A DNA stretch of 64,000 nt from Candidatus Eiseniibacteriota bacterium (GCA_963717935.1 CAVQXP010000003.1:40203-104202), one strand, 5' to 3'; numbered from the stretch's first letter, positions 27,896-34,953 are shown. The notes: generated by a model from the sequence alone, not told the origin. Made by a program: numbers and translations.

Positions 27896-28135
27896 ATGGC
27901 AGCCACCCGTATCACCGTGAAGAACGATGGCTCCCTGCGAGTCGAGGGCGACTTCGAGATCGTGGACCCGGAAGGCCGCCTTTTCGGCCTCGCGGGCCGC
28001 CCTCACGTGAGCCTGTGCCGCTGCGGCCAGTCGCTGAAGAAGCCGTTCTGCGACGGGGCGCACAAGGCCTCCGGGTTCCGCTCGCAGGTCGTCGCCATCG
28101 ACCTCGAACCGCCTGCCCCGAAACCCGGATCGTGA
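27896..28135 (+). CDS. CDGSH-type iron-sulfur domain protein
   Basis: ..SLCRCGQSLKKPFCDGAHK.. is the CDGSH motif. RBS CTGGAGG precedes the ATG. Confidence 0.8.
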   Translation: MAATRITVKNDGSLRVEGDFEIVDPEGRLFGLAGRPHVSLCRCGQSLKKPFCDGAHKASGFRSQVVAIDLEPPAPKPGS

Positions 28136-28148
28136 CACGGAGGCCCCG

Positions 28149-29100
28149 ATGAGACGCCCCGTCCTGCTCCTCGTCCTGGTGTGCCTGGCCATGGCCGCCG
28201 CTCCCGCTGCCCGTGCCCAGCGGACCTTCGACGAGGTCGTGATCACGCCCACGAAGCTGACCGATGGCCTCTGGATGATCACCGGGGCCGGCGGGAACCT
28301 GCTGGTCTGCGCGGGCCCGGACGGCGTGCTGCTGGTGGACGCCCAGTACGGGCCGCTCGCGGCGAAGATCCTCGCCGTGGTGGACTCGCTCTCCGGCGGC
28401 CGTCCACTGCGCTTCGTCCTCAACACCCACTACCACGGCGACCATGTCGGCGGCGACTCGGCCATGGCCGCGGCGGGCGCGACCATCGTGGCGCACGCGA
28501 ACGCGCGGCGGCGGATGAGCGCGGACCGGTTCAACAAGACCCTGGGGGCCACCACGAAGGCGGTGCCGGCCGCGGGGCTGCCCGTGCTGACCTTCGGCGA
28601 CTCGCTGACCTTCCACCTGAATGGCCTGGAGATCCGCGTCCTGCACCTGCCGCCCGGCCACACCGACGGGGACGCGGTGGTCTGGATCCCGGGCGCGAAC
28701 GTGCTGCACACGGGCGACCTGTTCTTCAACGGCACCTACCCGGTGATCGACGCCTCGGCCGGTGGCTCCATCGAGGGGATGCTCCGCGTCCTCGACCCAC
28801 TGCTGCCCATCGTGACGTTCACGACGAAGGTCGTTCCCGGGCATGGTCCGCTCGCCGACCGCGCCGCGCTGCTGCGCTTCCGGGGCATGCTCCTGGCGGT
28901 GCGCGACCGCGTGACGGCGCTCGTGAAGGACGGCCGCACCCTCGGGCAGGTGATGGCGGCGAAGCCCCTCGCCGACCTGGACCGGGATCTGGGGCACCGG
29001 CTTCATGACGCCCGAAGCCTTCCTGCAGATCGCCTACCAGGACCTCTCTCGGGAGCCGCCGCCCCCGCTGCCCGACCTCCTCCACGACCACCACCACTGA
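28149..29100 (+). pseudogene. Secreted MBL-fold metallo-hydrolase with an apparent +1 frameshift near 28975-28990
   Basis: Signal peptide, then NTHYHGDHVGG.., ..PGHTDGD.., ..HTGD.., ..PGHGP. After ..LADLDRD the family-like continuation WGTGFMTPEAFLQIAYQDL..HDHHH-stop (29098-29100) is in the next frame. The track ORF running on to 29489 is low-complexity Arg/Pro/Ala. Confidence 0.75.
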
Positions 29101-29520: not shown

Positions 29521-29820
29521 TCAGGCGTCGAGGCGGACGGAGCAGCGACCGAAGCGGCCGAAGGCGAAGCTCAGCCGGGCGGGATGCGCGCGAGCCGCCA
29601 GCACGTCCCGATGGACGTAGAGGGCGATCCCGCCGGCGTCCAGGCACTCATGCCCGGCGGGGTCTTCCGGGATCTCGAGCGACCCGACCGGGCCGCGCTC
29701 GACCGTTCATCAGCCGTGCATGATCGCCTGGAGCGAGACATACAGTGCCCCGCCCCGGGCGGCGATGTACTCCCGGAGTTCCTCGGACTCGAAGCGGGCG
29801 TGTCGCATGGCGGTCAGCAT
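29521..29820 (-). CDS. Candidate selenoprotein with two adjacent in-frame TGA codons (CC/Se-type small redox protein?)
   Basis: M(LTAM)RHARFESEELREYIAARGGALYVSLQAIMHG-TGA-TGA-TVERGPVGSLEIPEDPAGHECLDAGGIALYVHRDVLAARAHPARLSFAFGRFGRCSVRLDA-stop. Both halves show strong G/C third-position bias, and the downstream half has no start codon of its own. The start could be ATG 29820 or 29808. Confidence 0.55.
29675..29702 (-). promoter_or_regulatory. SECIS-like hairpin starting 4 nt after the second TGA
   Basis: Minus strand: UCGAGCG-CGG-CCC-GGUC-GGG-U-CGCUCGA. That is a 7-bp lower stem, an internal loop, a 3-bp upper stem and a GGUC apical loop, the same loop as in the E. coli fdhF SECIS. Confidence 0.45.
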
Positions 29821-29879: not shown

Positions 29880-30779
29880 CTAGGCCCGGCCCTGACGACA
29901 TGGCTGCGCGCGCCTCACGCTTTCCCACTGGATGGTGGGATGCACGATGCCGAAGCGCTCAGAAAGGTCGTGAGCGATGCGCGAGGTGAGATCGTCGTCG
30001 AAGGTCGCGCGGTCCGTGACGAGGTGTGCCGTGAGCGCGGTCTCGGTGGTGCTCATGGCCCAGATGTGGAAGTCGTGCACGTCGACGACGCCCGGCACGG
30101 CCTCGAGATAGCCCCGGACCGCCACCGGGTCGATCCGGCCGGGTACGGCGTCCATGGCCAGATCGAGCGACTCCCGCAGGATCCTCCAGGCACCGACCAC
30201 GATGAGCGCGCTCACCAGCAGGCTGACGACAGGGTCGAGCCACGGCCAGCGGGTGAAGACCATGGCCACGCCGGCGAGGACGACTCCGAGGGAGACGGCT
30301 GCATCCGCCACGAGATGCGAGGCGGCGGCGCGCACGTTCAGATCGTCGCGACGGCCACGTCCCAGGAGCCAGGCGCTCAGACCGTTCACGAGGATGCCGA
30401 GCGAGGCCACGGCGATGACCGTGGGCGCGGCGACCGGCCCCGGATGACGAAGCCGCTGCACCGCTTCGAGCGCGACGGCGCCCACCGCGATCAGCAGCAC
30501 GACGGCGTTGGCCAGCGCCGCGAGGATGGTGGAGCGCCGCAGACCATAGGTGCGCCGGGTGCTGGGCGCGCGTCGGGCCAGGAGGATCGCGCCCCAGGCG
30601 AGCAGCAGGCCGAGCACGTCGCCGAGGTTGTGACCGGCGTCCGAGAGCAGTGCGAGGGAGCCGGACCGGAACCCGAACACGACCTCGAAGACGACGAAGG
30701 TGACGTTGAGCCCCACCGCCACGAGGAAGGCGGTGCGGACCCCGTCCGCGGCGGGCGGATGTGGATGGTCATGCGTCAT
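29880..30779 (-). CDS. Cation diffusion facilitator (CzcD/ZitB-like) divalent metal efflux protein
   Basis: His-rich N-terminus MTHDHPHP, TM2 ..LLSDAGHNLGD.., TM5 ..HLVADA.., and a C-terminal domain ..VHDFHIW.. Confidence 0.9.
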   Translation of the reverse strand: MTHDHPHPPAADGVRTAFLVAVGLNVTFVVFEVVFGFRSGSLALLSDAGHNLGDVLGLLLAWGAILLARRAPSTRRTYGLRRSTILAALANAVVLLIAVGAVALEAVQRLRHPGPVAAPTVIAVASLGILVNGLSAWLLGRGRRDDLNVRAAASHLVADAAVSLGVVLAGVAMVFTRWPWLDPVVSLLVSALIVVGAWRILRESLDLAMDAVPGRIDPVAVRGYLEAVPGVVDVHDFHIWAMSTTETALTAHLVTDRATFDDDLTSRIAHDLSERFGIVHPTIQWESVRRAQPCRQGRA

Positions 30780-30812
30780 GTCGTCCTCGCGGCCGGCGCG
30801 CCGCCCGCGGAT

Positions 30813-31058
30813 TCACGCGGTCGCTCCGGACAGGATCTCCTTCAACTGTTCCACCGAGGGCACGCGTCCGGCGAACTTGAGCTCGCCATCGACGACGAGC
30901 CCGGGCGTGGACAGGATGCGATAGCCCAGGATGACGTTGAGGTCGGTGATCTTCTCGAGCTCGCAGTCGAGCCCGAGCTCCTTCACGGCGCGCTCGGTGT
31001 TCCGGTAGAGCCGTTCGCAGTTGGCGCATCCGGGGCCCAGGACCTCGATCCGGGTCAT
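30813..31058 (-). CDS. Thioredoxin-like small protein (redox-active disulfide protein 2 type)
   Basis: MTRIEVLGPGCANCERL.. has a CxxC motif. 81 aa. RBS AAAGGAG. Confidence 0.85.
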   Translation of the reverse strand: MTRIEVLGPGCANCERLYRNTERAVKELGLDCELEKITDLNVILGYRILSTPGLVVDGELKFAGRVPSVEQLKEILSGATA

Positions 31059-31105
31059 CTTCGTCTCCTTTCGGAAGAGCCCTCCGGACGGCGGAGGGCC
31101 CCGCG

Positions 31106-32140
31106 TCACATCAGCCAGTTGAACAGGTAGCCCACCAGGACGATCCCGACCGTGACCACCCCGAGGAACACCGCGATCAGCGCGGGTTTGAGCACCTTCC
31201 GCAGGATGATGGTCTCCGGCAGCGACAGCGCGATCACCGCCATCATGAACGCGAGCACCGTCCCCAGCGCGGCGCCCTTCTCGAGCAGGGCATGCACGAC
31301 CGGGATGATCCCGGCCGCGTTCGAGTACATCGGCACGCCGATGAGCACGGCGAGCGGCACCGACCACCAGGCCCCCCGGCCCATGATGGACGCCATGAAG
31401 TTCTCGGGCACCCACCCGTGGATGCCGGCGCCCACGGCGATGCCGATCAGGACGTAGGGCCAGACCTTGCCCACGATGTCGCGCACCGCCTCGAGCCCGC
31501 GGCCCAGGCGCTCCTCCCACGTCGTCCGGTGTTCGGGCAGCCCGGCCTCGCCCGCGTCCATCTGATAGACCCAGGGCTCGACGTGGCGCTCGAGCCGCAG
31601 GCGACCGATGACCCAGCCCGCGACGATGGCCACGGTCAGGCCGGTCCCGAGGTAGAGGGCCGCCACCTTCCAGCCGAACAGCCCGAACAGCAGGGCGAGC
31701 GCGACCTCGTTCACCATGGGGGCCGAGATCAGGAAGGAGAACGTCACGCCCAGCGGGATGCCCGCGGTCAGGAAGCCGATGAACAGCGGCACCGCCGAGC
31801 ACGAGCAGAACGGCGTCACGATGCCGAGGGCGGCGGCCAGCACGTTGCCCACCGACTCGGCCTTGCCCGCGAGGATGGCGCGCGTGCGCTCGGGCGTGAA
31901 GAACGAGCGCACCACGCCGACGCCGAACACGACCAGCGTCAGGAGCAGGAGCACCTTGGGTGTCTCGTAGACGAAGAACTCGACCGCGCTGGCGAGGTGC
32001 GTGCCGGCGTCGAGCCCCAGCAGGTCGCGCGTGAACCACGCGGCCGCCTGCTGGAGCGCGCCGTAGAGCGCGACCCAGAGCAACAGGGCGCCCGCCAGGG
32101 AGAGGAGCAGGCGCGGAAGCCGCGCCGGGGGCCTGCTCAT
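31106..32140 (-). CDS. Permease of the COG0701/ArsP-like family with CSC motif
   Basis: ..VTPFCSCSAVPLFIGF.. and the overall two-repeat topology. This permease commonly sits next to ArsR and the small thioredoxin-like protein. Confidence 0.85.
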   Translation of the reverse strand: MSRPPARLPRLLLSLAGALLLWVALYGALQQAAAWFTRDLLGLDAGTHLASAVEFFVYETPKVLLLLTLVVFGVGVVRSFFTPERTRAILAGKAESVGNVLAAALGIVTPFCSCSAVPLFIGFLTAGIPLGVTFSFLISAPMVNEVALALLFGLFGWKVAALYLGTGLTVAIVAGWVIGRLRLERHVEPWVYQMDAGEAGLPEHRTTWEERLGRGLEAVRDIVGKVWPYVLIGIAVGAGIHGWVPENFMASIMGRGAWWSVPLAVLIGVPMYSNAAGIIPVVHALLEKGAALGTVLAFMMAVIALSLPETIILRKVLKPALIAVFLGVVTVGIVLVGYLFNWLM

Positions 32141-32147
32141 CGGGGTC

Positions 32148-33215
32148 TCACGCCGCCGGCTCGCGGAACCAGCGCCGCCGCAACCACAGCGCCACGTTCA
32201 CCAGGCCGATCAGGGCCGGCACCTCGACCAGCGGCCCGATCACCGCCGCGAAGGCGGCGCCGTGGTGGATGCCGAAGGTCGCGACCGCCACGGCGATGGC
32301 CAGCTCGAAGTTGTTCGAGGCGGCGGTGAACGAGAGCGTCGCCGACTGCGGGTAGCTCGCGCCCACCCGCTTGCTCATGAAGAACGAGACCATGAACATG
32401 ACGACGAAGTAGATGAGCAGCGGGATGGCGATGCGCACCACGTCGAAGGGCAGCTGGACGATCTTCTCGCCCTTGAGCGAGAACATCACGACGATGGTGA
32501 AGAGCAGGGCGATCAGCGTGATCGGGCTGATCTTCGGGATGAACCGGCGCTGGTACCAGTCCCTTCCCTTCGCCCGCAGCAGCGCGAAGCGCGTGATGAT
32601 CCCGGCCAGGAACGGAATGCCGAGGTAGATGAAGACGCTCCGGGCGATCTCGGCCATCGTGATGTTCACGGCCACGCCCTTCAATCCGAGCCAGCCCGGC
32701 GCGAGCGTGATGAAGACGTAGGCGTAGAGCGGGAAGAAGAGCACCTGGAAGACCGAGTTGAAGGCGACCAGGCCCGCGCAGTACTCGCTGTCGCCCCGGG
32801 CCAGGTCGTTCCAGACGATGACCATGGCGATGCAGCGCGCCAGGCCGATCAGGATGAGCCCCACCATGTACTCGGGCTGGTCCCGCAGGAAGAGCACGGC
32901 GAGGCCGAACATGAGGATCGGGCCGACCACCCAGTTCTGCACCAGCGAGAGCGCGAGCACCCGCCCATCGCGGAAGACGCGGCCCATCTCCTCGTAGCGG
33001 ACCTTCGCCAGCGGCGGGTACATCATGAGGATGAGCCCGATGGCGATGGGGATGGACGTGGTGCCGGCGTTGAAGCGGTTCAGGAAGGGCACCAGGCCGG
33101 GGAACCGCCAGCCACCGCCGACGCCGACGGCCATGGCGAGGAAGATCCAGAGCGTCAGGTAGCGGTCGAGGAAGGAGAGCCGGCCGGTGACTCCGGCAGG
33201 GGAGGGCTCAGGCAT
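32148..33215 (-). CDS. acr3: Arsenite efflux transporter, ACR3 family
   Basis: ..[59 protein letters not shown].. are ACR3 blocks. Confidence 0.9.
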
Positions 33216-33684
33216 GCGAAGGTCCGCTTCGGCGGGAGGGCGCGCGCGCGGGCGATGCGCGCCGGGCCCGGCGGGCGGGGCGGGGTGCCGCGACCTGCGC
33301 GAGACGCGACGGCGCCCGCCGGGCCGGTGGCAGGGCGCACAGCGCCTCGACCGGGACGGCCTTCACGCTGCGCAACCGGCGGCGGTCCTCGAGGATGCGG
33401 GGCTCCCGGTCGAGCGGCCCGCGCAGCAGGGCCAGCACCGCGCGGGCGTAGGGGTTGCGCTTCTCCGTGGCGAGCGCGTAGTGGCTCCAGCGGCCGTCGC
33501 GCCGGTCGGCCACCAGTCCCGCGACCCGGAGCAGCGCCAGGTGCTTCGAGACCGTGGAGGGAGCGAGCCCGAGCACGGCCTGCACCTGGCAGACGCACAG
33601 CGGGCCGGCCTCGAGCAGCTTGAGGATGCGCGTGCGGGTCGGGTCGCCGGCGGCCTTGAGCGCCGCCTCGAGCTCAAGCAGCAT
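33208..33684 (-). CDS. arsR: ArsR/SmtB-family metalloregulator with long C-terminal tail
   Basis: ..[50 protein letters not shown].. is a wHTH with a CVC metal-site motif. ATG at 33684 with a GGAAGGA RBS. The 3' end overlaps the acr3 start by 8 nt. Confidence 0.85.
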
Positions 33685-33836
33685 GGCCGTCCTTCCATTT
33701 CGCCATGTGACGAAATGTAGTATCATGGCGCGTGGCCGTCAAGCGGCTCCGGGTTCGCCGGGCCGTCCGTGCCGCCGCGGTGCCCGAGATCGAGAGGCTG
33801 CTCGAGCCCCGAACGCCGAGTCCAAGGAGGATCCCA

Positions 33837-34238
33837 GTGACAGGTCGCACCGGACGCACCGCGCTGCTGCTCGTGAGCCTGGTGCTCATCGCTGCCGTGC
33901 CCGCTCTCGCCCGCAAGGCCCCGAAGCCCGCGCCGCCCGCCGCGCTCCCGCGCCTCCTGGACCTGGGCGCGACGAAGTGCATCCCGTGCAAGCGCATGGC
34001 CCCCATCCTCGAGGCGCTCAAGGTGGATTACGCCGGCGCCGTGGACGTGCAGTTCATCGATGTCTGGCAGAACCCGCAGGCCGGCAGGCCGTACGGCATC
34101 CGGCTGATCCCCACGCAGATCTTCTTCGACCGGGCGGGCCGCGAGCGGTTCCGGCACGAGGGCTTCTACGCCCGCAAGGAGATCGAGCGGATCTTCAAGG
34201 ACAGTCTCGGCGTGGCCCTGCGCCCCGCGGCGAAGTAG
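33837..34238 (+). CDS. Secreted/membrane-anchored thioredoxin-fold protein (TlpA/DsbE-like)
   Basis: GTG at 33837 follows AAGGAGG. It has a signal/anchor segment TALLLVSLVLIAAVPALA and the CxxC motif ..GATKCIPCKRM.. Confidence 0.75.
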   Translation: MTGRTGRTALLLVSLVLIAAVPALARKAPKPAPPAALPRLLDLGATKCIPCKRMAPILEALKVDYAGAVDVQFIDVWQNPQAGRPYGIRLIPTQIFFDRAGRERFRHEGFYARKEIERIFKDSLGVALRPAAK

Positions 34239-34254
34239 CGGGACCGGGGGACGC

Positions 34255-34953
34255 GTGGACGTCCTGGAGGGTCTGAGCGAGCAGCTCGCCTCGGTCATCG
34301 CCCACAGTCCCGCGCTGGCGCCGCTGGCCGCGTTCCTCGGCGGCGCGCTCACCGCGCTCAACCCGTGCGTGCTGGCGATGGTCCCGCTCATGGTCGGCTT
34401 CTCGGCCGGCCTGGTCGGGCGTGGCGCGACGGGGCGCCCCTGGCGGCGCACCCTGGGTTTCTCCCTGCTCTTCGTCGGGGGCTTCGCGCTCGAGCTGGCG
34501 CTGCTCTTCACCGTCTTCTCCGGCGCGACGGCGGTCCTGAGCGCGCCCTGGTGGCGCTACGTGCTGGTGGCCGTGTGCGCCGTCACCGCGCTGCACCTGC
34601 TCGGCTGGCTGCGCCTGCCGTCGATCCCCCTGCCGCCGGCCGCCGCGCGGGCCGCGGGCGCGCTGGGCGCGCTCACGCTCGGCTTCGTCTTCGGGATCGT
34701 CTCGCTGCCGTGCACGGGGCCGGTGCTGCTGCTGCTGCTGGCCCTGGTCCCGCGGATCGGCGCGGCCGCGGCGGGCGGCCTGCTGTTCGCCTACGGGCTC
34801 GGGCACTCGCTGCTGCTGCTCGTGGCCGGTACCTCGGTCGGCGCGGCCGCGGCGCTCGCCCGCCCGGGCCGTCTCCAGACCGCGACCCGCTGGGTGCGCG
34901 TGGTCGCGGCCCTCCTGATCCTCGCGGGCGGGGCCTGGTTGTTCACGCACTGA
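34255..34953 (+). CDS. ccdA: Cytochrome c biogenesis/thiol-disulfide transporter CcdA (DsbD core family)
   Basis: Six TM helices with the two conserved Cys motifs ..LNPCVLAMVP.. and ..SLPCTGPVL.. Confidence 0.85.
   Translation: MDVLEGLSEQLASVIAHSPALAPLAAFLGGALTALNPCVLAMVPLMVGFSAGLVGRGATGRPWRRTLGFSLLFVGGFALELALLFTVFSGATAVLSAPWWRYVLVAVCAVTALHLLGWLRLPSIPLPPAAARAAGALGALTLGFVFGIVSLPCTGPVLLLLLALVPRIGAAAAGGLLFAYGLGHSLLLLVAGTSVGAAAALARPGRLQTATRWVRVVAALLILAGGAWLFTH

Follow-up and report, generated by a model that had tools for sequence, protein, structure and literature searches.

On the minus strand of a 64,000-nt stretch of DNA from a Candidatus Eiseniibacteriota bacterium (GCA_963717935.1, CAVQXP010000003.1:40203-104202; the whole stretch is referred to as the window), two abutting in-frame UGA codons join the halves of a small candidate gene (29521..29808) that would encode a protein with two adjacent selenocysteine (Sec, U) residues. 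Judged by its relatives, the gene with its conserved tandem UGA is almost certainly real, and the UGAs are very probably recoded such that a single polypeptide is produced. With somewhat less confidence, both UGAs probably specify Sec through a single selenocysteine insertion sequence (SECIS), which would place a vicinal Sec-Sec pair on an IscA-like scaffold. There it would capture soft metal(loid)s of the arsenic or mercury type, or pass them on, as part of resistance and methylation operons. The case for Sec-Sec is a strong one and is built on sequence comparison.

The complete candidate coding sequence consists of 32 codons, the UGA pair, 61 further codons, and a stop (95 residues). The N-terminal half (N-half; MRHARFESEELREYIAARGGALYVSLQAIMHG; 29713..29808) extends from an ATG to an invariant glycine (G32) before the pair and reads ...GGALYVSLQAIMHG, TGA (29712..29710), TGA (29709..29707), after which the same frame stays open for 61 codons (TVERGPVGSL...RCSVRLDA) up to the stop TGA at 29523..29521. 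Translation of this C-terminal half (C-half; TVERGPVGSL...FGRFGRCSVRLDA; 29524..29706) gives TVERGPVGSLEIPEDPAGHECLDAGGIALYVHRDVLAARAHPARLSFAFGRFGRCSVRLDA and includes a nearly invariant cysteine (Cys) at position 55 of the half (29544..29542). Codons with G or C at the third position make up 28/32 of the N-half and 55/61 of the C-half, and the C-half of the window is unable to start by itself because the first in-frame ATG, GTG, or TTG past the TGA pair is codon 35 of 61. The original prediction had described the two abutting TGAs between coding halves, the open codons that follow, the downstream G/C bias, and the lack of a start codon near the 5' end of the C-half, and a re-reading of the sequence agrees in every detail. 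The product had been put at ~95-99 residues; by homology the translation start is most likely the ATG at 29808..29806 (MRHARF...), as an ATG lies 31-34 codons ahead of the first TGA in nearly all of 40 representative relatives, which favours 95 residues and leaves the 99-residue form that would begin at the ATG at 29820..29818 as the less likely one. No promoters or terminators were found around the gene.

A tandem TGA followed by a hairpin at a single locus is, without comparison, not compelling. TGATGA as a hexamer is common in the window, with 33 copies compared to 15.2 +/- 4.1 expected from dinucleotide-preserving shuffles (0/100 reach 33). The arrangement derives its significance from the presence of the same in-frame TGATGA and hairpin at every related locus examined. 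A word-indexed protein search returned one 61-residue open reading frame (ORF) 84% identical to the C-half, and four metagenome contigs bearing that ORF have an in-frame TGATGA between a 32-codon and a 61-codon ORF. An exhaustive HMMER search of 1.84 billion representative proteins with a C-half profile matched 34 clusters, all of them ORFs of 29–69 residues except for three spurious repeat proteins and one chimeric ORF of 90 residues. The complete ORFs amongst these clusters begin one or two residues past the TGA pair, indicating that gene callers cut every member short. The proteins searched did not yield any full-length Cys form of the clade with the tandem UGA (the UU clade). When the DNA of seven further clusters was retrieved via protein identity alone (P0002, P0007, P0018, P0045, P0031, P0026, and P0013), G-TGA-TGA was in frame in all of them, such that the pattern-independent clusters share the arrangement without exception (8/8) and, within their loci, neither the frame nor the 12-nt spacing varies. 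A scan of one genome per GTDB species for TGH-TGH-N12-GGCCCGGTCGGG, which admits any mix of Cys and TGA codons, yielded 120 matches; the seven that are family members by hidden Markov model (HMM) all possess TGATGA, and the 106 matches in which another codon pair is present (TGC/TGT at one or both positions) include no family member. The metagenome-assembled genomes (MAGs) that hold these seven members are labelled Myxococcales (two), Acidobacteriota (two), Desulfuromonadaceae (one), and Candidatus Eisenbacteria (two).

After a scan of metagenomes for GGN-TGATGA-N12-GGCCCGGTCGGG, the collection comprises 109 loci and 91 distinct proteins with identity down to ~30%. Every relative with readable DNA, from the Eisenbacteria, Myxococcota, Acidobacteriota, and Desulfuromonadaceae, carries in-frame G-TGA-TGA, and the homologs run in frame through both TGAs with none ending at the first, as the original prediction would have it. 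TGG, TGC, or CGA was seen at neither UGA position in any member, and several relatives lack a start codon between the UGA pair and the downstream GPVG (RAAEGP, RASRGP, SASYGP). Ratios of nonsynonymous to synonymous substitution rates (dN/dS) relative to the window are ~0.1–0.7 in both halves for most pairs and <1 in nearly all comparisons, with the higher values belonging to copies with a frameshift or indels; on this measure both halves are shown to be under purifying selection. The window is syntenic with a 3.62 Mb Candidatus Eisenbacteria chromosome (OY970178.1), whose ortholog (L012/L072; L012:10001-10400) keeps the TGATGA and is then frameshifted in the C-half (...ALYV, with the remainder in frame +1). 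Many adjoining genes in this long-read assembly are also called in pieces, which suggests assembly indel errors rather than a pseudogene. The 90-residue chimeric ORF (P0025; Joint Genome Institute contig of 1858 nt) has an MFS/PF13347 transporter-like start and 27 final residues from the UU family (...LQDPARLSFAFGRFGRCWLRLEVAP), and may represent a fusion, what is left of a gene, or an artefact of gene calling.

With the UU pair written as CC, the only NCBIfam match of the window protein is NF041239 (Moor_selen_rel), named 'CC/Se motif family (seleno)protein', which is the family name that the original prediction had given. The match spans the TGA pair (38.0 bits, E 1.3e-9; curated cut-off, 40 bits) and the family is also matched by every UU protein tested (5/5), with the window protein scoring best, so that by profile score the UU clade sits just outside the curated NF041239 boundary. 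A profile of five full-length UU sequences (U as C) found two proteins of 110–127 residues (...REYIAARGGAVTLRGSRRHGCCGGTAF...) that reach 94 bits on NF041239, and 70 such Cys-Cys proteins were retrieved, one of which, in a Gemmatimonadota MAG, is itself named 'CC/Se motif family (seleno)protein' by NCBI. In a profile comparison with hhalign, 40 UU proteins align to the Cys-Cys clade over 96–97 columns (97.3% probability, E 2e-11), a result that is unchanged when the UU columns are masked as X. Because both halves together align to full-length NF041239 members, they are best read as one polypeptide. With CC written in, G-U-U falls on G-C-C (H-G-C-C in Cys-Cys members), though the length between the motif and a conserved P-V differs by one residue between the two clades, so that this register is anchored by the shared (H)G and varies with the placement of a one-residue indel. 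Homologs with Cys in the TGA columns, as the recoding reading anticipates, are thus found in bona fide NF041239 members, subject to a one-residue ambiguity in register under masking. A Pfam scan matched neither the UU protein nor the Cys-Cys homologs, and precomputed database annotation lists PF28096 on Cys-Cys members. The two clades share a length of ~95–105 residues and a vicinal chalcogen pair that is preceded by a conserved Gly and placed in the loop beyond the second strand. They differ in that Cys-Cys members read HGCCGGTAFVPVAE and lack both GPVGS and a C-terminal Cys, whereas the UU clade reads G-U-U-x4-GPVGSL and ...FGxxGxC.

The predicted fold of the family was approached through a Cys-Cys homolog (P0047), for which AlphaFold2, given 68 sequences, returned a model in which a single helix accompanies a series of strands and the CC lies in a loop after the second strand (predicted local distance difference test, 74.7; predicted template modelling score, 0.66). 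A Foldseek search of the PDB with this model, rather than with a model of the UU protein, placed SufA/IscA-type structures in the top eight positions (template modelling scores 0.37–0.56, E 2e-3 to 4e-2, probability up to 1.0), including SufA 2d2a, IscA 1s98/1x0g/1r94, AQ_1857, and HI1723, with DsrR at rank 10. HMM scans gave weak IscA/SufA matches for the UU proteins and the Cys-Cys homologs, and searching the PDB by sequence gave no match for either clade. The N-half would correspond to the strand-helix-strand of the predicted IscA/SufA-like fold, and on the model the N-half and C-half would be two parts of one small domain, which is the strongest argument disfavouring two separate genes. 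The predicted likeness to the IscA/SufA/HesB proteins extends to the position of the reactive Cys or Sec in the loop after strand 2, and a HesB-like selenoprotein (TIGR01911) is listed in a 2026 review as a known Sec case in this fold. Differences include a pair rather than a single residue at the site, the lack of a sequence-level match to any solved structure, the absence of the C-terminal CGC motif, and a genomic context of arsenic and metal efflux instead of Fe-S assembly. The three conserved Cys ligands (Cys35, Cys99, and Cys101 of E. coli IscA) are not reproduced, as the UU clade has the UU pair and one C-terminal Cys and the CC clade has only the CC pair.

The putative SECIS lies within the coding region directly after the UGA pair. 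The original prediction located a hairpin (UCGAGCG...CGCUCGA) at 29702..29675, and a 28-nt inverted repeat (UCGAGCGCGGCCCGGUCGGGUCGCUCGA) occupies exactly these positions. Its core, GCGGCCC-GGUC-GGGUCGC (29679..29696), has a stem of 7 bp, including one G.U, beneath a GGUC loop (29689..29686) and overlaps the codons for R-G-P-V-G-S-L. For the first UGA (29710..29712), the apical loop is 20 nt away and the base of the core hairpin is 14 nt away; for the second (29707..29709), these distances are 17 nt and 11 nt. The core stands as a SECIS-like element that is conserved in orthologous loci; the extended lower stem (29675..29702) forms in the window, is not consistently conserved in relatives, and was dropped from the element, and RNAalifold retains only the upper helix. 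The 18-nt core folds at -12.3 kcal/mol, a value that 0/200 shuffles match, while in a 48-nt context the energy is ordinary for DNA of 68% G+C (z = -0.58). The published bacterial SECIS consensus (bSECISearch) comprises four criteria and a UGA-to-loop range of 16–37 nt, and each of the four features is present for both UGAs (GGUC loop, 7-bp stem, distances of 20 and 17 nt, and a minimum free energy of -12.3 kcal/mol).

Numbering starts at the U of the first UGA; on this scale the hairpin conserves the pairs G17-C34, C18-G33, G19-C32, G20.U31, C21-G30, C22-G29, and C23-G28, with G24-G25-U26-C27 in the loop. Both members of pair 18-33 are wobble positions at which changes are synonymous, mostly in Arg (CGC/CGG) and Ser (TCG/TCC) codons, and both lie outside the search patterns. 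Across 80 distinct sequences this pair is C-G in 63, G-C in 15, G.U in one, and mismatched in one. The covariation score of this pair is above all 500 shuffles, and sliding the partner column by one or more positions lowers pairing from 97% to 25–56%. The Ser codon is TCG or TCC in 78/78 sequences and never AGC, which would break pairs 19-32 and 20-31. Two divergent members recovered by protein search have GGC-CCC-GTG-GGG instead, with loop and stem altered in concert, and form an 8-bp hairpin with G-U still in the loop, and a Desulfuromonadaceae copy of low G+C content keeps GGCCCGGTCGGG, though this locus was found with that very pattern. The absence of the GPVG peptide from the Cys-Cys clade suggests that GPVG is imposed at least partly by the RNA. 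In E. coli fdhF the minimal SECIS hairpin begins 11 nt after its UGA and carries a GGUC loop, both of which equal what is seen for the second UGA here. More generally, the hairpin resembles bacterial SECIS elements in its position, its 4-nt apical loop starting GG-U, and its 7-bp upper stem, and departs from them in having two consecutive UGAs to serve and in its conserved G.U pair and lack of a bulged U.

Taken as one gene, the locus would encode a ~95-residue protein with the fold of an A-type carrier (IscA/SufA) in a divergent clade of NF041239, in which two adjacent Sec residues, encoded UGA-UGA, would replace the vicinal Cys-Cys of the family. SelB bound to the single SECIS hairpin, which also encodes the conserved GPVGS, would recode both UGAs. 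With the first UGA in the A site the hairpin would be 14 nt away, and one translocation later it would be 11 nt away; both spacings are within what known bacterial SECIS elements show. The mature protein would carry a Gly-Sec-Sec loop and, in most members, the conserved C-terminal Cys. It might bind soft metal(loid)s (As(III) or Hg(II), for example) or pass them on, or else act as a vicinal diselenide/selenol redox centre, in either case serving the co-encoded efflux and detoxification genes.

Several observations weigh against this proposal. Neither a tRNA-Sec nor SelA, SelB, or SelD signature motifs were found in the window or the fetched family loci, and Rfam covariance models return nothing at the hairpin, either at the gathering threshold or at E <= 10. 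Most of the 91 distinct sequences were retrieved with a pattern that fixes TGATGA and the upper stem, such that their invariance is partly by construction and the eight protein-derived clusters constitute the unbiased sample. The NF041239 score of the window protein lies below the curated cut-off, and once UU is masked, an ungapped profile alignment is displaced by one residue, such that UU no longer coincides with CC. We know of no experimental precedent for one bacterial SECIS serving two consecutive UGAs. The role in soft metal(loid) binding and transfer, or in vicinal diselenide redox, is read from the gene neighbourhood only and is put forward tentatively. Related to the Sec machinery, a neighbouring GTP_EFTU protein was considered as SelB and rejected as BipA-like, and a search for other TGA-split selenoprotein genes gave none that was convincing in the window and mostly noise in the related loci. 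A global reassignment of TGA is ruled out, as TGA is the commonest ordinary stop in the window and ends 19/32 of its genes.

The lack of Sec machinery in the window and the fetched loci bears on a partial or different recoding, in which one UGA is Sec and the other is decoded by near-cognate suppression (inserting Trp, Cys, or Arg), or in which both codons are leaky stops, leaving full-length protein as a minor product next to a predominant 32-residue peptide. Two SelB events in succession would be expected to be inefficient, and one UGA is 3 nt closer to the hairpin than the other, both of which fit such a scheme. Yet every member has UGA at both positions, with no near-cognate sense codon in its place, the pair corresponds to Cys-Cys in the homologs, and the SECIS-type hairpin is maintained with covariation at distances that are both inside the published range, making a mixed or leaky decoding unlikely. 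The split form that gene callers annotate everywhere, along with the GTG or ATG that some relatives have two to four codons past the TGA pair, would instead be explained by a 32-residue peptide with a tandem stop followed by an independent or re-initiated ORF of ~60 residues. This is very unlikely given that the C-half of the window has no start before codon 35, that several relatives have none between the UGA pair and GPVG, that frame and spacing are invariant in the pattern-independent loci, and that both halves map to one predicted IscA/SufA-like domain of full-length Cys-Cys homologs. Decay of a Cys-Cys gene into a pseudogene, or an error of sequencing or assembly, is brought to mind by the apparent frameshift in the neighbouring metallo-beta-lactamase gene of the window and by the internal frameshift in the copy on the related Eisenbacteria chromosome. 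However, the same TGATGA recurs across phyla and in assemblies made independently and with different technologies (91 distinct sequences), purifying selection acts on both sides of the pair, and the databases searched contain no Cys form of the clade, so that this origin is most improbable; the original prediction had likewise judged decay less likely than recoding. As a comparative case, its recoding reading is supported by the homologs, the match to Cys-Cys, and the hairpin, and decoding of both UGAs as Sec remains the preferred explanation.

A bacterial SECIS must sit directly behind the UGA that it recodes, so that each Sec would be expected to need a hairpin of its own; to our knowledge, few proteins have more than one Sec. 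Among the 119 families of prokaryotic selenoproteins inventoried in 2026, a few have two to three Sec, none of them adjacent, and multi-Sec entries are of the form UxxU, UxxxxU, CxU, and the like. The selenoprotein form of the NF041239 family is described in the 2026 review with one Sec (motif CxxU), not two, and a 2023 preprint by Haft and Gwadz discusses CU/UC dipeptides only. Full-text searches of the literature brought up no description of bacterial Sec codons that directly follow one another. While NF041239 and the fact that it contains selenoproteins are already known, the distinct, widespread, and exclusively UU clade with a proposed single SECIS seems to be new; the main risk to this novelty is that RefSeq curators may already be annotating some members as UU without publication. 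The clade is likely to be missed by standard annotation, appearing as two 'hypothetical' ORFs in every assembly examined and scoring just under the NF041239 cut-off. If the proposal is true, one SECIS allows SelB to act on two successive codons, first at a spacing of 14 nt and then at 11 nt, which would surprise specialists in bacterial Sec decoding, provide a clean experimental system, and be useful for engineering diselenide-containing proteins.

The neighbourhood of the gene offers indications as to function. It is the last member of a same-strand run (29880..33726 plus the gene itself) that is likely a single metal(loid)-resistance operon. The NCBIfam assignments in this run, all on the minus strand, are an ArsR-type regulator (33208..33726), an ACR3 arsenite efflux protein (32148..33215), a PF03773 permease most similar to the SaoE and SO_0444 efflux transporters (31106..32140), an MTH895/ArsE thioredoxin-like protein with a CxxC motif (CANC; 30813..31058), and a CDF cation efflux protein (29880..30779). 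The SO_0444 family is known to include selenoproteins and SaoE is part of the selenoprotein-rich SAO system; the permease and the MTH895/ArsE protein are Cys forms in the window. Divergent from the operon, a thioredoxin-like protein and a DsbD-type membrane protein (33732..34953, plus strand) could be a supply of reductant for it; the second of the two is weakly similar to TsoB, a rhodanese/DsbD selenoprotein.

Across 41 representative loci, for which two flanking genes on each side were tallied, the most frequent domains are SBF/ACR3 (10), LMWPc of the arsenate-reductase type (5), ArsP_1 (3), DsbD_2 (3), S-adenosylmethionine (SAM) methyltransferases (3), ArsR (2), and DGC (2). In one locus (L234:766-2355) an hgcA-like gene (NVWCAAGK cap-helix motif and C-terminal membrane domain) and an hgcB-like ferredoxin (...DCC) precede the UU gene, whose ATG overlaps the hgcB-like stop (TGCTGATGG). 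A metal(loid) or redox role is suggested by these arsenic, metal, and hgcAB neighbours, and the recurrence beside ACR3, ArsC-type, ArsP-like, and hgcAB genes points to a possible unrecognised selenium-dependent step in the handling of arsenic and mercury by sediment and soil bacteria. Vicinal chalcogens serve as ligands of soft metal(loid)s or as a redox centre with an eight-membered ring in ArsD (Cys-Cys), MerA (C-terminal Cys-Cys), and thioredoxin reductase (GCUG, Cys-Sec). As a ligand for soft metals a vicinal diselenol is extreme, and as a redox pair it has a very low potential. Selenoproteins with CU/UC dipeptides (SaoL, SaoC, and the 'CU' form of HgcA) are known in organometallic systems (Haft and Gwadz 2023 preprint). 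The UU clade resembles all of these proteins in its adjacent chalcogen residues, and further in that the permease of the window resembles SaoE and one relative follows hgcAB, but they have at most one Sec in the pair and are unrelated in fold and sequence.

Among the remaining features of these loci, a SAM methyltransferase lies downstream of the UU gene on the opposite strand in L234, and a Cys-rich DGC-domain protein (PF08859), the domain seen twice in the 41 neighbourhoods, is encoded immediately upstream of the UU gene in another locus (L233:82-459). The metallo-beta-lactamase-fold gene of the window (28053..29098, plus strand) has a change of frame near 28990 when compared with an intact 355-residue ortholog in a related locus (L196; tblastn frame 3, then 1), which reflects either a real frameshift or an assembly indel.

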